32,777 nt of DNA from a virus (lineage: Duplodnaviria; Heunggongvirae; Uroviricota; Caudoviricetes). Numbering within the stretch: the stretch's first letter is position 1; each line of letters begins with the position of its first letter. The stretch lies in the IMG/VR virus record IMGVR_UViG_3300022562_000870, positions 68,184 to 100,960 of that record; one strand, given 5' to 3'. This document shows, in pieces, positions 338 through 20,793 of the stretch. The position numbers were made by a program, and so were the translations under genes. The notes below the pieces were generated by a model. It made no database searches, was not told the DNA's origin, and saw only the letters and a list, made by a program, of their open reading frames with translations.

Positions 338-411
338 GGGCTATTGGTGTAGTGGTAACATGGCTGGTTCCAACCCAGCAGACAGGGGTTCGATTCCTTT
401 ATGGCCTGCCA
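338..411 (+). tRNA. trnW: tRNA-Trp (CCA)
   Basis: Acceptor GGGCTAT/ATGGCCT, anticodon arm GCTGG-TTCCAAC-CCAGC, T-loop GTTCGATTC, G73, encoded CCA. Confidence 0.92.
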
Positions 412-427
412 AGTAAATAGTTTTAAT

Positions 428-503
428 GGCGGTGAATGCGAAAGGCTGAGCAGGTCGCTTCATAAGCGATTGGTTGTGGGTTCGAGTCCCACCGCCGCTA
501 CCA
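428..503 (+). tRNA. tRNA with CAU anticodon (probably elongator Met), atypical A8 and U10-A25
   Basis: Acceptor GGCGGTG/CGCCGCT, anticodon arm GTCGC-TTCATAA-GCGAT, T arm GTGGG-TTCGAGT-CCCAC, A73 CCA. Met versus Ile2 identity cannot be settled by eye. Confidence 0.85.
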
Positions 504-509
504 AATAAT

Positions 510-602
510 GCCTCTATAGTGTAATGGCAGCACCCGAAGCTTATACCTTCGTTAGCCCCAGATTAGGGCGTAGTCTAGGTTCGAATCCTAGTAGAGGCAC
601 CA
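510..602 (+). tRNA. 93-nt class-II-shaped tRNA with UAU (Ile) anticodon and long variable arm
   Basis: Acceptor GCCTCTA/TAGAGGC, D arm GTGT-AATGGCA-GCAC, anticodon arm CGAAG-CTTATAC-CTTCG (TAT at 542-544), 23-nt variable region with a GCCC/GGGC stem, T arm CTAGG-TTCGAAT-CCTAG, A73 CCA. Confidence 0.88.
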
Positions 603-618
603 ATCAAGGAGAAGTTAA

Positions 619-879
619 ATGATTGTTAACATCCTGAATAAAATTATTGCTACTGTATGGTGGTTTTATACATTACCATCGAATTATGATAAAGAACGCC
701 GAAGTTCTATTCAATATAGACGCAAAAAAATGATAGTTAAAAACATCTGGATATATTCCCTTTCCACAAAGGCTATAATTATGTGTTCTTTTCCGTGGCT
801 CCTTGCTTCAGCAGTTTGTATGGTAATATTACTAGCTACAACGTTTCTTGGGTTCATGATACTTGACGAAACCGCATAA
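619..879 (+). CDS. Hypothetical membrane protein (86 aa)
   Basis: AAGGAG Shine-Dalgarno upstream; hydrophobic C-terminal segment (WLLASAVCMVILLATTFLGFMIL). Confidence 0.6.
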   Translation: MIVNILNKIIATVWWFYTLPSNYDKERRSSIQYRRKKMIVKNIWIYSLSTKAIIMCSFPWLLASAVCMVILLATTFLGFMILDETA

Positions 880-882
880 ATA
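875..882 (+). promoter_or_regulatory. T4-late-type promoter box CATAAATA
   Basis: One mismatch to the T4 late consensus TATAAATA; 26 nt upstream of the ATG at 909; the same motif recurs before other genes in the window. Confidence 0.45.
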
Positions 883-908
883 CATGAAAACTATATGGAG
901 ATAGTATC

Positions 909-1274
909 ATGTCAATGAGCGAAAAACTAAAAGAAACACCACCATGGGTATGGAAACTCATAACGGCTGTTGGTACAATTGCTGGTCTTGCGGTATCTGC
1001 GACACAATTATCAGATTGGTATTGGAAAAAAGTAGAAGACTTAGTAAAGGGTTCTGTAACGCAATCTGCCATACAGGTAACTACCGAACTTAAAAAAACA
1101 GAAATATCATTAGGAAGATTTCTAGTCGATGATATTGAATTCCGAATTGTTGGTGTTCAGAATGAAATTGATGAATATAGACGCAGTAACAAGACGGTTC
1201 CGTTATATCTTGAACGTCGATTGGAATTGCTCCATGACCAACTTGAAGAGGCGAAGGAAAAATGGGACGAATAA
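909..1274 (+). CDS. Hypothetical protein with N-terminal membrane anchor and coiled-coil C-terminus (121 aa)
   Basis: GGAG Shine-Dalgarno; hydrophobic WVWKLITAVGTIAGLAVSA followed by a charged helical region. Confidence 0.7.
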   Translation: MSMSEKLKETPPWVWKLITAVGTIAGLAVSATQLSDWYWKKVEDLVKGSVTQSAIQVTTELKKTEISLGRFLVDDIEFRIVGVQNEIDEYRRSNKTVPLYLERRLELLHDQLEEAKEKWDE

Positions 1275-1537
1275 TATTAAGTATAATACTAGGTTTGTTT
1301 ATTAGTTCTGCTATAGCTGGTGGGATTCCAAAAGAACAACAACAGGCTGGTAAGTGGGTTTTCGATGAAGAATTTAAAACACTGGTTGAAACACAGATGA
1401 AAGAAAACCTTGATGAAGGCGAAAAAGCTAAATGTGAACGAAAGTTAGAATATTATAGTAAAAAACTTGAAAAGAAACCAGATTCAGAGTATTATCAACG
1501 CAAGCTTGAAAAATATATTAAGCGCTGCACAAAATAA
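1262..1537 (+). CDS. Hypothetical secreted protein with type I signal peptide (91 aa)
   Basis: MGRIILSIILGLFISSAIA (basic n-region, hydrophobic h-region, A-x-A site), then a Lys/Glu-rich helical body; overlaps the upstream ORF end. Confidence 0.7.
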   Translation: MGRIILSIILGLFISSAIAGGIPKEQQQAGKWVFDEEFKTLVETQMKENLDEGEKAKCERKLEYYSKKLEKKPDSEYYQRKLEKYIKRCTK

Positions 1538-1543
1538 CGCACT

Positions 1544-1617
1544 GCCCCGTCCGGTGGATTCCGGCCATGTGGCTTCTAACTACGTTGTGAAGGGTTCGAT
1601 TCCTTTACGGGGTGCCA
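1544..1617 (+). tRNA. trnR: tRNA-Arg (UCU) with atypical D arm
   Basis: Acceptor GCCCCGT/ACGGGGT, anticodon arm TGTGG-CTTCTAA-CTACG, T arm AAGGG-TTCGATT-CCTTT, G73 CCA. Position 8 is C; the D region reads CCGGTGGATTCCGGCC. Confidence 0.8.
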
Positions 1618-1683
1618 ATTTAAATATATAGACCTCTCACACCATGCTATTAGTGCAGAAATGTCAAGTCTATTTTTTAATAA

Positions 1684-2121
1684 TTAAAGTTCTTTCGTTT
1701 CTCTAAAGGACATTTTTATCCAATGTGTGCACGCTTCAGATGATGCGTAATCTAACATATATCTATGATCTAACAACTTACATGCAGAAAACATAAATCT
1801 TCCATTTACATTACCCATACCATCCAATTCTTCAACGACAAAAGAAATACTATCATAATCGTTTGATTTAGAAAGTGCACTCAATTGTTTAACGAATGTG
1901 TGGAGATGGTTATTGTTTATATTTTGTTCGACTATTATTTCTAAGGTTTGAAGATGATAATTAAAAGTGAAAGAAACTATCTGCATTATAAGAATAATTT
2001 TAACTTCATCTATGATTGGGACATTTGGTAAGATGGTAAGACGCCAGCGATTTTGTAATTTGGGTTGTAGGATTCCTGTAGCAATTTCGGGTATCTTCTG
2101 TGTATTTTCTAGTGATGCCAT
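1684..2121 (-). CDS. Tail-tube (gp19-like) family protein, 145 aa; true start MASLENT at 2121
   Basis: GAGGA Shine-Dalgarno before ATG 2121. 'GILQPKLQNRWRL' and 'ACKLLDHRYMLDYASSE..W.KMSF' resemble jumbo-myophage tail tube proteins (from memory). Late box upstream. Confidence 0.55.
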   Translation of the reverse strand: MASLENTQKIPEIATGILQPKLQNRWRLTILPNVPIIDEVKIILIMQIVSFTFNYHLQTLEIIVEQNINNNHLHTFVKQLSALSKSNDYDSISFVVEELDGMGNVNGRFMFSACKLLDHRYMLDYASSEACTHWIKMSFRETKEL

Positions 2122-2122
2122 A

Positions 2123-2151
2123 TTGATTTTTCCTCGTATATAGTATAAAAT
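2123..2151 (+). promoter_or_regulatory. Sigma70-type promoter TTGATT-N17-TAAAAT
   Basis: 17-bp spacer with one mismatch in each hexamer; upstream of ORF 2186 and tRNA-Ile2; divergent from the tube-like gene. Confidence 0.5.
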
Positions 2152-2153
2152 GT

Positions 2154-2161
2154 TATTTATA
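2154..2161 (-). promoter_or_regulatory. T4-late promoter TATAAATA
   Basis: Exact T4 late consensus on the - strand, 32 nt upstream of the tube-like gene. Confidence 0.6.
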
Positions 2162-2185
2162 GAAATTAACATTTGGGGTAAGTAT

Positions 2186-2368
2186 ATGAAATTTAAAGGG
2201 GAAGATACCGCAGGTACCATATTAGCATTAGTAGCGGCTGTTTGTTTACTTGGGATGATTGTGTGCATGATTACCATCGTTTTAGGTGAGAACGGTTTAT
2301 TAAGCTGGTATTGTCCATATACTTACTGTCCTGAACCCAATTCTGCACCATATATGGGTGCTGACTAA
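2186..2368 (+). CDS. Small single-pass membrane protein (60 aa)
   Basis: ATG at 2186 after GGGG; hydrophobic ILALVAAVCLLGMIVCMITIVL. Confidence 0.5.
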   Translation: MKFKGEDTAGTILALVAAVCLLGMIVCMITIVLGENGLLSWYCPYTYCPEPNSAPYMGAD

Positions 2369-2370
2369 TT

Positions 2371-2444
2371 GCGCCTCTAGCTCGAAGGTCGAGCGTGCGA
2401 CTCATAATCGCTTGGTGAGGGTTCGATTCCCTCGTGGCGCACCA
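2371..2444 (+). tRNA. trnI: tRNA-Ile2 (CAU, lysidine type)
   Basis: The anticodon-arm region GCGACTCATAATCGCTTGGT matches the enterobacterial tRNA-Ile2 signature; T arm GAGGG-TTCGATT-CCCTC; A73 CCA. Confidence 0.85.
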
Positions 2445-2474
2445 ATTTAACCTATTGATTTTTTCGTTTTTCAT

Positions 2475-2503
2475 TTGACAATAAATAGCCCGTTGTGTAT
2501 AAT
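2475..2503 (+). promoter_or_regulatory. Perfect sigma70 promoter TTGACA-N17-TATAAT
   Basis: Exact hexamers and 17-bp spacer, 32 nt upstream of the vWA gene. Confidence 0.85.
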
Positions 2504-2535
2504 ACAGCAACAATAATAATTGGAGAATTATAATA

Positions 2536-3300
2536 ATGTCTGATGATAATGAAAAGGTTCTTAGTGACCTAATAAAAGATAAAATGGAAGCTGCGGGAAT
2601 TAAACCAACAACTTCTGGAAGGGATGAAATAGTTTGTATCGTTGATCGCTCTGGTTCTATGGGTAGTATGCAAGTCGAAGCACAAGGTGGAATCAACGCA
2701 TTCATCGAAGAACAACGCAAGGTTGGTGAAGCAAACCTAACAATCGTTGAATTTGATAATTTCATTAATGTTGTTTGTGATAAAGTTGATATCAATGAAT
2801 CGGTTGAATATAAACTTGAACCGCGTGGAATGACAGCATTGTTGGATGCCATCGGTACTGTAGTTGGTGATAAAGAAAAATATTCATCAAAAACTGGAAA
2901 AACCATCGTTGTTGTAATGACAGACGGTGCTGAAAATGCTTCTAAGGAATGGAGTAAAGATAAGATTAGCACACTTATCAACGAACGCAAAGAAGATGGT
3001 TGGGAATTTTTATTTCTTGCGGCAGGACAAGACGCTATTTCAGTCGGTCAAGCTTATGGTTTTGACAAAGATTCAACTGTAACGTTTGCTAATAATTCCA
3101 TGGGTGCCATGCACGCTACAAATGTCGCATCTGCGTATACGAGCAACTTGCGTACATCAAATAAAAGTTTTGCACAATCGATGAAGAATGCATATGTTAG
3201 CGCAAATGCGGATTACTTATCAGAAGAAGGTGCAATTGATGTAAATAGTAACCTGAATGTTGGTGGTTTAGCACCAGATATCAATTCAGAAAAGAAATAA
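2536..3300 (+). CDS. von Willebrand factor A (vWA) domain protein
   Basis: MIDAS motif IVDRSGSM, 'GMTALLDAIG' and 'VVVMTDGAEN'; GGAG Shine-Dalgarno. Confidence 0.9.
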   Translation: MSDDNEKVLSDLIKDKMEAAGIKPTTSGRDEIVCIVDRSGSMGSMQVEAQGGINAFIEEQRKVGEANLTIVEFDNFINVVCDKVDINESVEYKLEPRGMTALLDAIGTVVGDKEKYSSKTGKTIVVVMTDGAENASKEWSKDKISTLINERKEDGWEFLFLAAGQDAISVGQAYGFDKDSTVTFANNSMGAMHATNVASAYTSNLRTSNKSFAQSMKNAYVSANADYLSEEGAIDVNSNLNVGGLAPDINSEKK

Positions 3301-3309
3301 ATGGATTAA

Positions 3310-3385
3310 CGCGGGATATATCAGGGGCAGATTACTAGGCTCATAACCTATGTGGACGGTGGTTCGAATCCATCTCCCGCAACCA
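3310..3385 (+). tRNA. Initiator-like tRNA-fMet (CAU), divergent anticodon stem
   Basis: C1xA72 mismatch, CGCGGGA/TCCCGCA acceptor, A11-U24, anticodon arm CTAGG-CTCATAA-CCTAT, T-loop GTTCGAATC, ACCA end. Confidence 0.85.
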
Positions 3386-3405
3386 TTTTTAAAAACCGTT
3401 TCAAT

Positions 3406-3481
3406 AGCGGGGTGGAGAAGTTGGAATCTCGTTAGCCTCATAAGCTAAAGATCGCCGGTTCGAATCCGGCCCCCGCAACCA
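3406..3481 (+). tRNA. Second initiator-like tRNA-fMet (CAU)
   Basis: A1xA72 mismatch, AGCGGGG/CCCCGCA acceptor, A11-U24, anticodon arm TTAGC-CTCATAA-GCTAA, T arm GCCGG-TTCGAAT-CCGGC, ACCA end. Confidence 0.88.
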
Positions 3482-3502: not shown

Positions 3503-4423
3503 ATGTTATCAGAATTCATAAGAGAACTTACCGAACAAGATAAGAAAAGTCTTTCACAAAAAGCCCTAAAAGTCTGCGAAGAAGCTGGTGAATTAGCTAA
3601 AGTGGTTTTACCATTTGACAACGCTGATGGTACGCTACATCGCTTTGTAGACAAATATAAAATCCTCGAAGAAGTGGCAGATGTGTATCTAACTGCAATA
3701 TCTATTGCATACGAGCTAGGTTTCACCGAAGACGAAATTGAAGATATGATTAGTACAAAGGCTAAAAAATGGGCAGATCTCCAGCGGCGTGAAGCCAAAC
3801 TTAAAGAAAAAATTCCTTTTGAAATCCATGTAACTGTTAAAGCAGCAGACATGGATATGTTTAAAACTGTCTGTAAAAACCTTAATGTAAAACCGATCAT
3901 TCTTGATTTACAAACCAAAAATAAAACAACGATAAAAGATGTCATGACATCTTCTGTTCATATAGGCACAAATCGCAGTGCTTACGAAGAAATGGCGCGA
4001 ATATCACATGGTTTAACTATGGAAGGATATGATGTTGTACGGGAAAAAATAGAAACAGTGCCTTGGCATCCTGCTGCACCCAGCGCATTGAATGATGCTA
4101 TAGAAATGCCACGCGGCTGTTATTTTGAAACACACATCGGTGTTAATATTCCCAATGAAGATCGCAAAGAAGACTTGGAAGTTATTACAGATATATTAGA
4201 TGCACACATGTCACGCAATGCGTTTAAAGTACACGATGATGGATCTTGGATGCAAATGGTAACAATGCGCACATATGAAGGAACACATGAAGATTTTGAA
4301 CTCCGGGCGAATCTTCTATATAACCTTATTAAAGCGGAAGGATTTGATGTTGAAAAACGCATCACAGAATTTTCTATATATGATACAAAAGTCAGCCACG
4401 ATGCTGAATGGTTGAAAAAATGA
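3503..4423 (+). CDS. MazG-like NTP pyrophosphohydrolase fused to an uncharacterised C-terminal domain (306 aa)
   Basis: 'KVCEEAGELAKVV' and 'ILEEVADVYL' are the two acidic metal-binding helices of MazG/all-alpha NTP-PPases; ~200 further residues are unassigned. Confidence 0.75.
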   Translation: MLSEFIRELTEQDKKSLSQKALKVCEEAGELAKVVLPFDNADGTLHRFVDKYKILEEVADVYLTAISIAYELGFTEDEIEDMISTKAKKWADLQRREAKLKEKIPFEIHVTVKAADMDMFKTVCKNLNVKPIILDLQTKNKTTIKDVMTSSVHIGTNRSAYEEMARISHGLTMEGYDVVREKIETVPWHPAAPSALNDAIEMPRGCYFETHIGVNIPNEDRKEDLEVITDILDAHMSRNAFKVHDDGSWMQMVTMRTYEGTHEDFELRANLLYNLIKAEGFDVEKRITEFSIYDTKVSHDAEWLKK

Positions 4424-4641
4424 CAAGAGATCAAAAAGATTTAGTTCCAAGTTATGCAGATAATTGTCATAACAAAACATTAATTAGATTTTATAATAAT
4501 AAACAAGAATTGGTGCGATTAAATAAATGGCGCAAGGAACACTGGACACAAGAACAATTAAATGAAGTTGTTCTTACAGCTCTAATGATGCGTCTAGGTA
4601 TATTCAATCCAACACTCGAATGGTATTATAATGATGACTAG
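4420..4641 (+). CDS. Hypothetical protein (73 aa)
   Basis: ATGA overlap with the MazG stop (translational coupling); the last codons overlap the RNase P P1 5' strand. Confidence 0.6.
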   Translation: MTRDQKDLVPSYADNCHNKTLIRFYNNKQELVRLNKWRKEHWTQEQLNEVVLTALMMRLGIFNPTLEWYYNDD

Positions 4642-4862
4642 GCAGCCGCACTACGGTGAGGAAGCTCAGGACACACCCGACACCTGTAGGAGAAATGCTG
4701 GTATAGTCTGACTAGCGTCGGCTATACAAAGCGCGTTATACTACTGATACGAAAGGGGTGTGCAACACAAACAGTCCAAGATAAGTGTCATTCTATGAGG
4801 ACGGGTTGTGGCCAATAGACGAATGGTTGCCCTCGACAGAATCCTGGCTATCGGTTATTATT
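4630..4862 (+). ncRNA. rnpB: Compact bacterial-type RNase P RNA (catalytic domain intact, reduced specificity domain)
   Basis: P1 AATGATGACT(4630-39)/GGTTATTATT(4853-62). P2 GGCAGCC/GGTTGCC. P3 CAC-TACG-GTG. CR-I GAGGAAGCTCAGGA pairs with CR-V ACAGAATCCTGGCT to give P4 (AGC-bulged T-CAGGA/TCCTG-GCT). P5(/7) CACACCC/GGGTGTG followed by CAA. P15 CACA/TGTG with GGGT in L15. P16 GTCC/GGAC. CR-IV TAGACGAAT. Confidence 0.9.
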
Positions 4863-4880
4863 AATATAAGGATAAAAGAT

Positions 4881-5576
4881 ATGTTTGATATAAAAGTACA
4901 AGAAATTTTCCCGGGTTTAATACATCTGCATTTTAAAAATCAATATGAAGTTACGTCTACTATGATGCGTGCGCAAGAATTCTATGAATCACCACATGAA
5001 AATATTAGGGGTAAATTTTTCGAACTTGACAAGTATATGGATACTTATGCGCAAACTCATGGAAATTTTACATATACTTCCGATTGGTCTGGTTTTAATA
5101 TCCCAGGTAATGTTGTGAATGCTTTCTTTGATACTTTTGATAATGCATTACTTGAAAAAGAAGTTTATCTTAAAGGTCACATAGATGTAGCAAAAGAAGA
5201 TTTTGGTATAACGGGTGACAATTTTTACCTTATCGCATCATTTGATGATGAATCTGATCGTGACATTTTATCACACGAAATCGCACACGGTTTCTATTAT
5301 CTTAATGTAGACTATCGGGCGGCAATGGATGGTATCATAGGTTCTATCGATGATAATACATATGCACGATTAGCGAAGGTATTATTAGATAAAGGATATA
5401 TGGATGGTGTTATCGATGATGAAATGCAAGCGTACTTTTCTACATCACATATGATACAATTAACGTATGATTTTGATACTGATGATTTACCTTGGGAACA
5501 TGTTCTTAAGTGTAAAAAAGTTTTTGAAGAATACCACGAAAAGATCCACGAACACTTACACGATCACCAATCGTAA
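4881..5576 (+). CDS. Hypothetical HExxH (zincin-like) protein, 231 aa; true start MFDIKV at 4881
   Basis: AAGGA Shine-Dalgarno before ATG 4881; the track's 4785 start lies inside the RNase P RNA. Motif 'LSHEIAHGFYY' with a downstream 'DEMQAY' Glu as possible third ligand. Confidence 0.7.
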   Translation: MFDIKVQEIFPGLIHLHFKNQYEVTSTMMRAQEFYESPHENIRGKFFELDKYMDTYAQTHGNFTYTSDWSGFNIPGNVVNAFFDTFDNALLEKEVYLKGHIDVAKEDFGITGDNFYLIASFDDESDRDILSHEIAHGFYYLNVDYRAAMDGIIGSIDDNTYARLAKVLLDKGYMDGVIDDEMQAYFSTSHMIQLTYDFDTDDLPWEHVLKCKKVFEEYHEKIHEHLHDHQS

Positions 5577-11331: not shown

Positions 11332-11907
11332 TTATATAAGCACTGTCAATAGTTCGTTATAATTATCAATATGTGATTTGCGAACCGCATAGTAATAAGG
11401 TATACCATATATTATAATTTCAGCGCCAGATTCTATACCGGACGCCAAATCTTCAGAAACGTATGTAAACCTAAGCAAATCTGTAAAAACTGCCTTACCT
11501 GATTTTTCACCCATTTCTTCAAGAATGGATTCAAGGACTGCCTTGTATTCCTGTGTGGAATTTTCTACTTCTTTACTATAAAGGAATTTATATCCATCTA
11601 TAGGAAAAATGTAAAATGGATCGGATTTCTCCATTATTGTTTGTTCATAAGTGGTTAGACCATTCGCAAATATAGATCGTTCGCGCAAGTCTTCCAATTC
11701 ATGCGTAAATGCCCCATTGAACATATTAGAAAAGGCATTTGTCTGTTTTCTTTTACGGACTTTTACCTTCTGAAAATCGCTGTAATTTTCCGGTAAATAT
11801 TTAACCATAGGCAAACCACCAGATTCATCCAGAAACTGAGTGCATTGTGCCCGTATCAATTCTAAAGTACCGGGTTCGTATCTAAAAATTAAGTCTTTTA
11901 CACGCAT
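11332..11907 (-). CDS. Hypothetical protein (191 aa), start MRVKDL at 11907
   Basis: The alternative ATG at 11943 lies in a terminator loop. 'RSIFANG...FYIFPIDGYKFLYS' pattern recurs in jumbo-phage proteins (from memory). Confidence 0.7.
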   Translation of the reverse strand: MRVKDLIFRYEPGTLELIRAQCTQFLDESGGLPMVKYLPENYSDFQKVKVRKRKQTNAFSNMFNGAFTHELEDLRERSIFANGLTTYEQTIMEKSDPFYIFPIDGYKFLYSKEVENSTQEYKAVLESILEEMGEKSGKAVFTDLLRFTYVSEDLASGIESGAEIIIYGIPYYYAVRKSHIDNYNELLTVLI

Positions 11908-11914
11908 GGTGTAG

Positions 11915-11922
11915 TATTTATG
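11915..11922 (-). promoter_or_regulatory. T4-late-type box CATAAATA
   Basis: Directly after a terminator and only 7 nt before ATG 11907. Confidence 0.5.
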
Positions 11923-11930
11923 CGTGTAAT

Positions 11931-11960
11931 AAAGCGGGGCCATCTGAAAAACCCCGCTTT
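11931..11960 (-). terminator. Intrinsic terminator AAAGCGGGG...CCCCGCTTT
   Basis: 9-bp inverted repeat downstream of the 11973..12242 gene. Confidence 0.7.
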
Positions 11961-11972
11961 AGTGGTGGTTTA

Positions 11973-12242
11973 TCAACCAGCCTCGGCATCTAACTGCGCG
12001 ATTAATTCATTCGCAAGTTGGATGCTTTTCGTAGCAATGTACCGCGGACCGCGTTGAATATCATCTATCAGATATGAAAAATCAACCTGATAGAAATACA
12101 GTGAAGTACATTCCCATTCATCGTCTTTATTGACGAAACAATAGGCACGTGAACCGACACTGTTTGCGGCTTTCGCGGCTGCCTTGGAAAACGCACGAGA
12201 CAAGTATTTGACAACTTCGTCAATATTAATCTCTTTTTCCAT
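11973..12242 (-). CDS. Hypothetical early protein (89 aa), start MEKEIN at 12242
   Basis: GAGG Shine-Dalgarno before ATG 12242; own sigma70 promoter and terminator. Confidence 0.7.
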   Translation of the reverse strand: MEKEINIDEVVKYLSRAFSKAAAKAANSVGSRAYCFVNKDDEWECTSLYFYQVDFSYLIDDIQRGPRYIATKSIQLANELIAQLDAEAG

Positions 12243-19339: not shown

Positions 19340-19718
19340 CTGCTATTCTTCTAGCTAAATTTATTAAAACTAAAAGTTCCTCATATTCTTTGGGTCGATT
19401 TTCTTTTGTCATAGTGGCAACGCCACGCAAATAATTTGCGACGTGACTAGCCTCTAGACCTGTTCCCGTTAAAAGTAATTTCCAAGTATTATCAAGATAT
19501 TCTTTAAATGCTGGTAATATATGTTTACAATCATCGGGGCCTTCGATTTTATATGTTGGGGCATTGGGGTTTATTTTTTCAATGGCGCGTGTAGTTTTAC
19601 GAATGCGTGGGTTTTTCGTAGAATTTACTTTCTTCTTCGTAGGTTTCTTTTTTGAAAAAAGCGGAGAGCTTTCATCAAAAACTAAAAGGTCTTGATCTGT
19701 ATTTTTACTTTCCGGCAT
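19296..19718 (-). CDS. Hypothetical protein with basic N-terminus (140 aa)
   Basis: Co-oriented and overlapping both neighbours; Lys-rich N-terminus. Confidence 0.65.
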   Translation of the reverse strand: MPESKNTDQDLLVFDESSPLFSKKKPTKKKVNSTKNPRIRKTTRAIEKINPNAPTYKIEGPDDCKHILPAFKEYLDNTWKLLLTGTGLEASHVANYLRGVATMTKENRPKEYEELLVLINLARRIADERNRTTSQEEQDS

Positions 19719-20793
19719 TCCAAACTAAATCCTGAACATCCATTAACAATGCTGCTGCAAATTTTAAATCTGGTTTTTTTGGAAGTTTTGTTTTTTTATA
19801 CCATACAACACGAACTTCCTCATCCATCTTTGTAGCATAATCAACAATTTCATCATATGTCCATGCGCCGCCACGAATTTGAAGTAACTCAAGGGCATCC
19901 GGGCGCTTGACAACAATTTCTTCATCGCGAAGTGCTTCCACACCCATGCGCAATAATCTTACAAGATGCATAGCATGTTTTGTATCATAACCAAATTGTT
20001 CTTCAAGTTCGCTACGTACTTCATTTCGATTATTTTTCCATTCCCAATATCTTTCATGTTTTTCTTTAAATTCACGATAAATGTCTTTATTGAATTTAAT
20101 AACCATAACTGGGAGTGTGTCTTCAAATTCAGAGCGATCACCTTCATATGTGGTGTTCAATTTTCCAAATGTGTCAAATAGTTCTCTACCCTTTTCAGGA
20201 TATACACCATAGATGTTACCACCAAACGGCACCAAACGATGGTCTTCATTCCATTCATCAATATTCAATTTTAACATTTTTTCTTTGCCAAAGTATTGCA
20301 CCAAAGATACGTAATCCTTGGGCTTGGGTGCTTCTTTTGGTTGCGGGTTATTGATCCACTTATTATGACCTTTAATACGATGTAACTGTGACAACGCATA
20401 GCCAGAAGTAGTAAAGGCAATCTTAGAAGAAAGTAATTTATGTCGATGTTCGCGAAGCAAATCATATGCAGGCGTTCTGAATGTAATATCAGTATCATTA
20501 ACCCAAAGAGTTTCGATAATATTTGGGTTACAATCCAAACACAGTTTCATGAAATGTGCGAGTTCATACAGTTTAGTATCTTCTTCCGCAATGTCATCAC
20601 ATTCACGCACAGTAAAAAATGGTGTACGAACGTTTACAGGATCACCGCAGAAGATACCACGAAAATCTACATCTGAAGATGGTAAATTTGTTCCATACGA
20701 AATCGATCCTGCATAGTGTTTAACCAGCATGTTATCTTTCATAAGACTTTGGGCGTCTTTTGGTCGCAGTGTTTTAATTTGGTGCGTAAACAT
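19705..20793 (-). CDS. DNA-polymerase-beta-superfamily nucleotidyltransferase (RlaP/NrdC.11-like)
   Basis: 'AGSISYGTNLPSSDVDFRGIF' (GS...DxD), 'CNPNIIETLW', 'GYDTKHAMHLVRLL'. Confidence 0.88.
   Translation of the reverse strand: MFTHQIKTLRPKDAQSLMKDNMLVKHYAGSISYGTNLPSSDVDFRGIFCGDPVNVRTPFFTVRECDDIAEEDTKLYELAHFMKLCLDCNPNIIETLWVNDTDITFRTPAYDLLREHRHKLLSSKIAFTTSGYALSQLHRIKGHNKWINNPQPKEAPKPKDYVSLVQYFGKEKMLKLNIDEWNEDHRLVPFGGNIYGVYPEKGRELFDTFGKLNTTYEGDRSEFEDTLPVMVIKFNKDIYREFKEKHERYWEWKNNRNEVRSELEEQFGYDTKHAMHLVRLLRMGVEALRDEEIVVKRPDALELLQIRGGAWTYDEIVDYATKMDEEVRVVWYKKTKLPKKPDLKFAAALLMDVQDLVWNAGK

Follow-up and report, generated by a model that had tools for sequence, protein, structure and literature searches.

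A miniature homologue of class A RNase P RNA in a tRNA-rich viral record

To our knowledge, the RNA of ribonuclease P (RNase P) has been regarded as a universal ribozyme of cellular housekeeping. RNase P works in trans on the 5' leaders of precursor tRNAs (pre-tRNAs); the active site of the bacterial enzyme consists of the paired region P4 and the conserved regions CR-I, CR-IV and CR-V, the acceptor end of the substrate is held by the joining region J5/15 and the loop L15, the specificity domain (S-domain) reads the tRNA elbow (T-loop/D-loop), and P18-P8 ties the two domains together. The protein subunit RnpA binds at CR-IV, CR-V and P15, P3 is part of the usual protein-contact neighbourhood, and protein-free activity of bacterial RNase P RNA requires unphysiological salt. 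Here we analyze a 32,777-nucleotide (nt) stretch of viral DNA (positions 68,184 to 100,960 of IMG/VR record IMGVR_UViG_3300022562_000870; the window, hereafter), whose plus strand carries at positions 4629-4863 a 235-nt element that reads, from P1 to P1, as a whole gene for a miniaturised, class A-derived RNase P RNA with a complete catalytic domain (P1-P6, P15-P17, CR-I, CR-IV and CR-V). Full-text literature searches turned up no description of an RNase P RNA gene in a phage or in any other virus, and the window RNA is a member of an apparently unpublished family of phage mini RNase P RNAs.

The reference for this comparison is class A RNase P RNA (E. coli M1 RNA, the rnpB product; Rfam RF00010), with which the window RNA shares P1-P6, P15-P17, the P4 pseudoknot with its bulged U, CR-I, CR-IV, CR-V, the CAA of J5/15 and the L15 GGU for the 3'-CCA. 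In contrast to class A, the phage RNA is 235 nt long instead of about 380 nt (E. coli-type sequence L016), with 158 nt rather than 268 nt from CR-I to CR-IV; its P3 has only 3 base pairs (bp), P18 is absent, a 72-nt stub replaces the S-domain (P8-P14 with CR-II/III), and the RNA is encoded by a virus in whose record no rnpA was found. Fuller phage RNase P RNAs of 270-325 nt (L009, L017, L022 and L023), on which no publication was found either, resemble the window RNA in lying within phage tRNA arrays, in coming from records where no RnpA was found, in being matched by the covariance model R1 described below, and in the unusual P4 variants UCGGGA/UCCCG that both groups share; unlike the window RNA, they retain most of the S-domain and P18, and they pass the Rfam gathering score.

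Size reduction has a natural parallel in the archaeal type T RNase P RNA of Thermoproteaceae (RF02357), a diminutive RNA that was missed by the existing models and needed a covariance model of its own (Chan, Brown & Lowe 2012, PMC3579882). Its reduction is analogous, but type T is built on an archaeal backbone with an archaeal protein set and is an essential cellular RNA, the two reductions being independent and the reduced state not shared by ancestry; RF02357 gave no match in any of our permissive scans. An engineered counterpart is the E. coli construct Eco CP RPR (CP and RPR as in the name given to it by Mao et al. 2018, PMC5839562), a laboratory construct of reduced efficiency, whereas the phage RNA, in which P6 is retained and P18 lost, is natural, carries a conserved stub that includes a P7-like helix, and is known here from its sequence. 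In that study the E. coli catalytic domain (C-domain) alone cleaved substrates whether or not the C5 protein was present, a P6-like pairing was needed, and P18 was dispensable once the S-domain had been removed (PMC5839562). Activity of the mini RNA would be feasible, because these requirements match the parts that it has kept (P6) and lost (P18). Finally, theta ribozymes, which resemble the hepatitis delta virus (HDV) ribozyme, are phage-encoded, lie in tRNA gene regions and have a proposed role in tRNA end processing (Kienbeck et al. 2024, PMC10879173); in contrast to RNase P, they act in cis, cut 3' trailers, are single-turnover and have an unrelated fold.

The anatomy of the window RNA was read from the sequence of the plus strand. 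P1 pairs 4629-4639 with 4853-4863 over 11 bp, three of them G-U, and is present in the minimum free energy fold. P2 (GGCAGCC, 4641-4647, with GGUUGCC, 4825-4831) is followed by a P3 reduced to the hairpin CAC-UACG-GUG (4649-4658), which has 3 bp in the window and is longer in some relatives. CR-I/J3-4 with the 5' strand of P4 reads GAGGAAGC-U-CAGGAC at 4658-4673; the U at 4666 is bulged out of P4, whose segments 4663-4665 and 4667-4671 pair with 4842-4849. P5 (4672-4678 with 4756-4762), supported by both sequence and covariation, leads into the P6 pseudoknot, in which GACAC (4679-4683) pairs with GUGUC (4785-4789) in L17. After P5, the CAA of J5/15 (4763-4765, within UGCAAC at 4761-4766) is the counterpart of the E. 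coli A248 region. The substrate-binding module continues with P15 (CAC/GUG, 4766-4768 with 4808-4810), an internal loop AAACA/GGGUU in which GGGUU (L15) occupies 4803-4807 and its GGU 4804-4806, P16 (GUCC/GGAC, 4774-4777 with 4799-4802) and P17 (AGA/UCU, 4779-4781 with 4792-4794). CR-IV (UAGACGAAUG, 4816-4825; AGAYGAAUG in class A) lies in what is J15/2 here and J18/2 in full-size RNAs, and CR-V (ACAGAA, 4836-4841), on the other side of the P2 3' strand, runs into the 3' strand of P4 (UCCUGGCU), the two together occupying 4836-4849. The joint between P15 and CR-IV is only 5 nt long (GCCAA, 4811-4815), and therefore there is no P18.

The 72-nt remnant of the S-domain occupies 4684-4755, flanked by a P6 strand and a P5 strand, in a position that is topologically that of the S-domain in the fuller phage RNase P RNAs. 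It is closed by a P7-like helix (4686-4689 with 4741-4744) and contains a conserved GGAGA, a long lineage-specific hairpin, a CGUUAUA motif and a small tetraloop hairpin. The class A features found are therefore P4 with its bulged U, CR-IV and CR-V, the P1-P2-P3 stack, P5 and the J5/15-L15-P16-P17-P6 module, and those lacking are the S-domain P7-P14 with CR-II/CR-III and P18. A preliminary description of this DNA had already listed P1, P2, a mini-P3, P4 with the bulged U, P5, the CAA, P15 with the L15 GGU, P16, CR-IV and CR-V, and all of them are present where it placed them; it was also right that P18 is absent and that the RNA is strongly reduced, but its P1 of 10 bp is 1 bp too short, and the S-domain has not wholly gone, a conserved stub being left. 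P17, the P6 pseudoknot and the P7-like helix with the stub are additions to that list. Single-sequence folding (z = -1.89 for the plus and -1.56 for the minus strand) was uninformative, because it ignores pseudoknots.

To assess the helices, a structure-blind MAFFT alignment of 24 family members was passed to RNAalifold, and controls were made by sliding the helix partners by 1-3 columns. RNAalifold recovered P1, P3, P4, P5, the P7-like helix, P15, P16 and P17; of the 45 pairs, 29 showed double changes. P1 was paired in 80% of cells, compared with 30-47% for slid partners, and eight of its nine RNAalifold pairs were double-changed. P2 was paired in 95% of cells (double changes in six of seven pairs) and P6 in 80% (five of five), whereas their slid partners paired in 28-52% of cells. 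The P7-like helix was paired in 98% of cells, with three of its four pairs double-changed, P15 in 100% and P16 in 94%, both with double changes, and P17 covaries, as do P15, P16 and P6. Across the family, P3 switches between CAC/GUG and CUC/GAG, and P6 also occurs as GGAAC/GUUCC, AGAAC/GUUCU, GAAAC/GUUUC and GAAGC/GCUUC, while the long hairpin of the stub is variable. CR-I with its bulged U, UGCAAC and the L15 GGU were invariant in the 24 sequences and lay outside the search pattern; the invariance of CR-IV and CR-V is partly by construction, because these two regions were the search pattern.

The covariance model R1, built only from mini RNAs, spans 178 positions from P2 to P4 and does not contain P1, P4 or P6. 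It matched the window at 4640-4849 from end to end (model positions 1-178) with 169 bits, a score that is partly by construction because the window is among the 24 seed sequences, and it matched 19 non-seed sequences at 57-147 bits. When 43 distinct sequences were realigned with R1, 94.6% of cells paired, compared with 68.7% in shuffled and 34-39% in slid controls, and 26 of 32 pairs were double-changed, P2 (helix 1) being paired in 96.4% of cells; none of 500 shuffles attained any of these measures. On the same alignment, P4 was paired in 343 of 344 cells, with four of eight pairs double-changed, and P6 in 71% of cells, with all five pairs double-changed, and the observed counts were matched in none of 1000 shuffles. 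Since neither helix is part of R1, these counts are independent tests, and the covariation in P2 and P4 that the preliminary description had asked for is strong. A further R1 helix, GAG/CUC inside CR-I, never varies and is only RNAalifold's stand-in for the pseudoknotted P4.

A close comparison was provided by the relative L011, which is 87% identical to the window over the RNA. The two sequences show 30 differences, 18 of them within helices, and not a single pair is broken, all remaining standard pairs: the 11 substitutions in P1 all preserve pairing, and in P5 an A-U pair has become G-C by a double change. Outside the helices, the two sequences differ within the variable hairpin and by the exchange of a GAAA loop for UUCG. 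Taken together, these substitution patterns show purifying selection on the fold.

The relationship to class A RNA was established through relatives. RF00010 aligned L011 over model positions 1-367 (45.9 bits, E 2e-13), placing P1, P2, P3, CR-I, P5, GCAA, the L15 loop, CR-IV and CR-V as in the window and treating P18 as a deletion, and it also aligned L040, L082, L072 and L066 over positions 1-367; scores of family members under this model were 38-48 bits (E 1e-9 to 2e-13). In the opposite direction, phage RNase P RNAs that Rfam certifies were matched by R1 from end to end (L017, 52 bits, E 4e-14; L021, 42 bits; L022, 32 bits), and E. coli-type rnpB was matched locally (E about 5e-5). Therefore, the chain of homology is closed both ways, and the window RNA is almost certainly, as judged from sequence comparison, a homologue of bacterial class A RNase P RNA whose fold has been kept by selection. 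One relative, L089, gave a weak match to RF00373 (35 bits).

The distribution of the family was determined with a text pattern of CR-IV and CR-V, which matched viral contigs at 30 places and metagenome contigs at 64. Several of the viral matches are Rfam-certified class A RNAs located inside tRNA arrays of contigs of up to 360 kb, and sizes go from 325 down to 207 nt; the window RNA belongs to a further-reduced group that numbered 35 and then 43 distinct full-length members after removal of duplicates. Of the 47 loci of the family, 46 have tRNAs on the same strand, the median gap being 17 nt, and most members lie between tRNAs with no adjacent protein gene; therefore, co-transcription with the tRNAs and release by tRNA processing would be the rule. 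Among 185,579 cellular species genomes, the pattern occurred in six contigs of metagenome-assembled genomes (MAGs), two of which were R1-confirmed members. These two, L101 (Flavobacteriales MAG, 160 bits) and L097 (Planctomycetia MAG, 130 bits), carry tRNA arrays, and one of them has the same length as a metagenome contig already in the set; both probably represent phage contigs that were binned into MAGs and may give hints about possible hosts. Blastn of the window region against deposited phage genomes gave no match, and L095 and L017 matched in that collection only the rnpB of a Salmonella chromosome.

The window makes up the final third of a record of 100,960 bp that CheckV estimates to be 30% complete, and a search of the whole record with R1 found the RNA at 4629-4863 as its sole copy. 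The DNA sequencing runs that carry the record are marine-sediment metagenomes, and no RNA run was listed as carrying it. The record encodes a T4-type major capsid domain (Gp23), whose profile matched none of 14 cellular controls, and the window proteins include a ribonucleotide reductase, a UvsX-like recombinase, a phage-type single-stranded DNA-binding protein (SSB), a MazG-like pyrophosphatase and a DnaB-like helicase. Synteny with jumbo phage XacN1 was seen for the recombinase-SSB pair, and the best protein matches are to giant phages of 310-490 kb; a terminase (PF03237) gave no match in this 30%-complete record. In agreement with the preliminary description, the capsid domain, the phage-type SSB, UvsX and MazG proteins and the synteny with XacN1 identify the contig as phage rather than cellular.

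These data bear directly on the possibility that the RNA has no function, being either the decaying remains of an rnpB captured from a host or cellular DNA that mis-assembly has placed in a viral contig. Such an origin would account for an RNA that Rfam does not report and that is absent from related cultured phages, but at least 43 diverged copies keep the fold by compensatory changes, the helices of L011 and the window differ at 18 positions with no broken pair, the survey of cellular genomes yielded no more than the six pattern matches on MAG contigs and two R1 confirmations given above, and the flanking genes are phage genes syntenic with L011 in a record with a Gp23 capsid domain. A relic or an assembly artefact is, consequently, extremely improbable.

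The record contains 36 tRNA genes predicted by ARAGORN, all on the plus strand, 35 of which have an encoded CCA. The last members of this region are the seven tRNA genes of the window (338-3481, plus strand, with an encoded CCA read from the sequence), which had been noted before and are confirmed here; at its gathering threshold, Rfam reported on the window six tRNAs only. The RNase P RNA gene is located on the same strand downstream of the 36 tRNAs, 1,158 nt past the last one. This arrangement agrees with the earlier proposal that the phage tRNAs are the substrates, which had named the seven upstream genes; the adjacency holds, but the substrates would probably be all 36 tRNAs of the record. 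The encoded CCA fits a predicted enzyme that retains the L15 GGU. Four of the seven window tRNAs have a CAU anticodon.

Because most of the record's tRNAs look canonical to ARAGORN, they also count against the idea that the RNA is a specialised RNase P for irregular phage tRNAs or tRNA-like elements (with long extra arms or abnormal anticodon halves) that the host enzyme handles poorly, the loss of elbow reading being then an adaptation. Such a specialisation would explain why the S-domain has shrunk to a stub and the elements for the acceptor end and for CCA binding have been retained, and the window does encode a tRNA-Ile(UAU) (510-602) whose long variable arm has a stem of its own. Nevertheless, fuller phage RNase P RNAs with an S-domain are also found in phage tRNA arrays, and a specialisation of this kind appears improbable.

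The best explanation of these results is, in our view, that the window RNA is most likely an active catalytic subunit that borrows the RnpA of the host and recognises pre-tRNAs by acceptor stem and CCA, a reading that we hold with reasonable but not high confidence. According to this model, the mini RNA would be transcribed during infection, would bind host RnpA, and would cleave the 5' leaders of phage pre-tRNAs, with recognition resting mainly on the acceptor stem and on pairing of the 3'-RCCA with the L15 GGU, so that the tRNA elbow would be read little or not at all. The benefit would probably be additional capacity for 5' processing, or capacity that does not depend on the host, for a tRNA set that is heavily transcribed and in part irregular.

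Several observations weigh against this model. RnpA (PF00825) was not found in the record nor in 10 other viral records with phage RNase P RNAs, two of them at least 90% complete, and the use of host RnpA is an assumption because of this result. Constructs that consist of the C-domain alone have a much lower efficiency than full enzymes (PMC5839562). The window copy lies 1.16 kb from the nearest tRNA with protein genes on both sides, unlike most of its relatives, and a promoter and terminator scan gave no signal above shuffled expectation. R1 and RF00010 found no match in eight related cultured giant phages (XacN1, CM1, Xoo-sp13, RsoM2USA, Escherichia A4, Atu_ph07, Phosso and Vibrio 2.275.O), so that the mini RNA must be dispensable for such phages. 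The Rfam check proposed in the preliminary description also failed for the window RNA itself, which no Rfam RNase P family reported even at E up to 10 in three cuts of the same DNA (4500-5000 and 4610-4885 among them), and RF00010 gave no match over the whole 101-kb record. By itself this silence would speak against the assignment, but in view of the match of L011 it is treated as unexplained and not as counter-evidence; a search heuristic may be behind it. The RF00010 scores of the family members that do match are well under the curated gathering cut-off of 100 bits, and annotation pipelines miss such genes because of this distance.

The lack of RnpA in the 11 viral records raises the question of whether the ribozyme might be active without the host protein, either alone or with an unrecognised phage protein, which would make tRNA 5' maturation host-independent. 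Consistent with this possibility, P3, part of the protein-contact neighbourhood, has been cut to 3 bp, and C-domains can work protein-free in vitro (PMC5839562). Furthermore, two protein genes flank the RNA in the window sub-clade. Upstream, a conserved small protein gene (4408-4641, plus strand) overlaps the 5' strand of P1 with its last 13 nt, and in L011 its homologue, 58% identical, abuts the RNA; the gene is also present in L040. Downstream, a gene for a 231-amino acid protein with an HExxH motif (HEIAHG; 4881-5576, plus strand) has no Pfam or PHROG match, and in L011 its homologue, 62% identical, follows the RNA directly, while in L060 the protein is encoded 2.8 kb downstream of the RNA. 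As the preliminary description had suspected, the open reading frame (ORF) that starts with GTG at 4785 and ends at 5576 is false at its 5' end, where it enters the RNA, the real start being the ATG at 4881. The flanking proteins are, however, not family-wide, as tblastn finds them only in L011, L040 and L060, and their role as a dedicated partner of the RNA was rejected. Most members have no adjacent protein gene and lie between tRNAs, the need for unphysiological salt speaks against a bacterial RNase P RNA working protein-free, and the best-kept parts of the RNA are CR-IV, CR-V and P15, precisely where RnpA binds. Independence from host RnpA is, therefore, unlikely.

The retention of this RnpA-binding core together with the loss of the S-domain, which serves efficient turnover, and the lack of a phage RnpA could also be accommodated by a decoy or competitor that would capture host RnpA, or the 3' ends of pre-tRNAs, with no productive catalysis, and would thereby divert host tRNA maturation in favour of the phage. 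For a decoy, however, there would be no need of the P4 bulged U, the J5/15 CAA, the L15 GGU, P6 or P16/P17, all of which are invariant or covarying. Moreover, the 36 tRNAs of the phage need RNase P themselves, so that sequestration of RnpA would harm the phage, and the tight placement of the family in tRNA arrays fits an enzyme that is made together with its substrates. We consider a decoy function very unlikely, and an active subunit using host RnpA is retained as the preferred explanation.

Some family members and fuller relatives showed additional features. Apparent double copies in L007, L048 and L056 were rejected as such, each being a single gene interrupted by about 430 nt: in L007 (22-238 and 665-865, minus strand), the 5' half (P1-P5 and GCAA) and the 3' half (P15 3' strand, CR-IV and CR-V) are apart, and likewise in L048 and L056. 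L025 and L024 are also interrupted genes, the halves of such members being parted by about 430 nt or by ORF-like sequence. Such interruptions may represent an intron, a mobile gene that has been inserted, or a split RNA. In L042 (1040-1402) and L081 (675-1037), the end-to-end R1 match spans 363 nt, which indicates large insertions. In L020, a 360-kb viral contig, the Rfam RNase P match (11470-12119, minus strand) spans 650 nt because a 130-amino acid ORF (11626-12018) lies inside the S-domain region; by eye, this ORF has CxxC...HH...CxxCH...H motifs resembling an HNH homing endonuclease, and it gave no Pfam match. GOLLD RNA (191 bits) and transfer-messenger RNAs (tmRNAs), both standard and permuted, share tRNA regions with mini RNase P RNAs (L002, 1003-1462; L027, 1020-1390; L028, 6267-6656). 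Another RNA-end function is encoded in the window itself, at 19705-20793 on the minus strand, by a gene for a 362-amino acid nucleotidyltransferase (phrog_388; Pfam RlaP, of the RNA-repair-pathway DNA polymerase beta family).

A virus-borne RNase P RNA would add tRNA 5' maturation to the translation functions of large phages, which include tRNAs, synthetase-like proteins, tmRNA and RNA repair. Evolution would here have repeated the laboratory deletion experiments, keeping P6 and the CCA-binding loop and dropping P18 and nearly all of the S-domain, and the family would serve as a naturally occurring map of the minimal core of bacterial RNase P, with dozens of sequences for structural and kinetic work and compact ribozymes for guide-sequence applications. 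Phage annotation reads through such genes with false ORFs, as in the window, because current Rfam thresholds miss them. A bolder possibility, which we regard as doubtful at present, is that large phages have a natural elbow-independent RNase P, a catalytic-domain-only RNA of 200-odd nt made together with the phage tRNAs, that would free their 5' maturation from the host RNA subunit, perhaps also from host RnpA, and would widen the substrate range to irregular tRNAs. If this were true, it would be the smallest natural bacterial-type RNase P and would represent a new class of phage takeover function.

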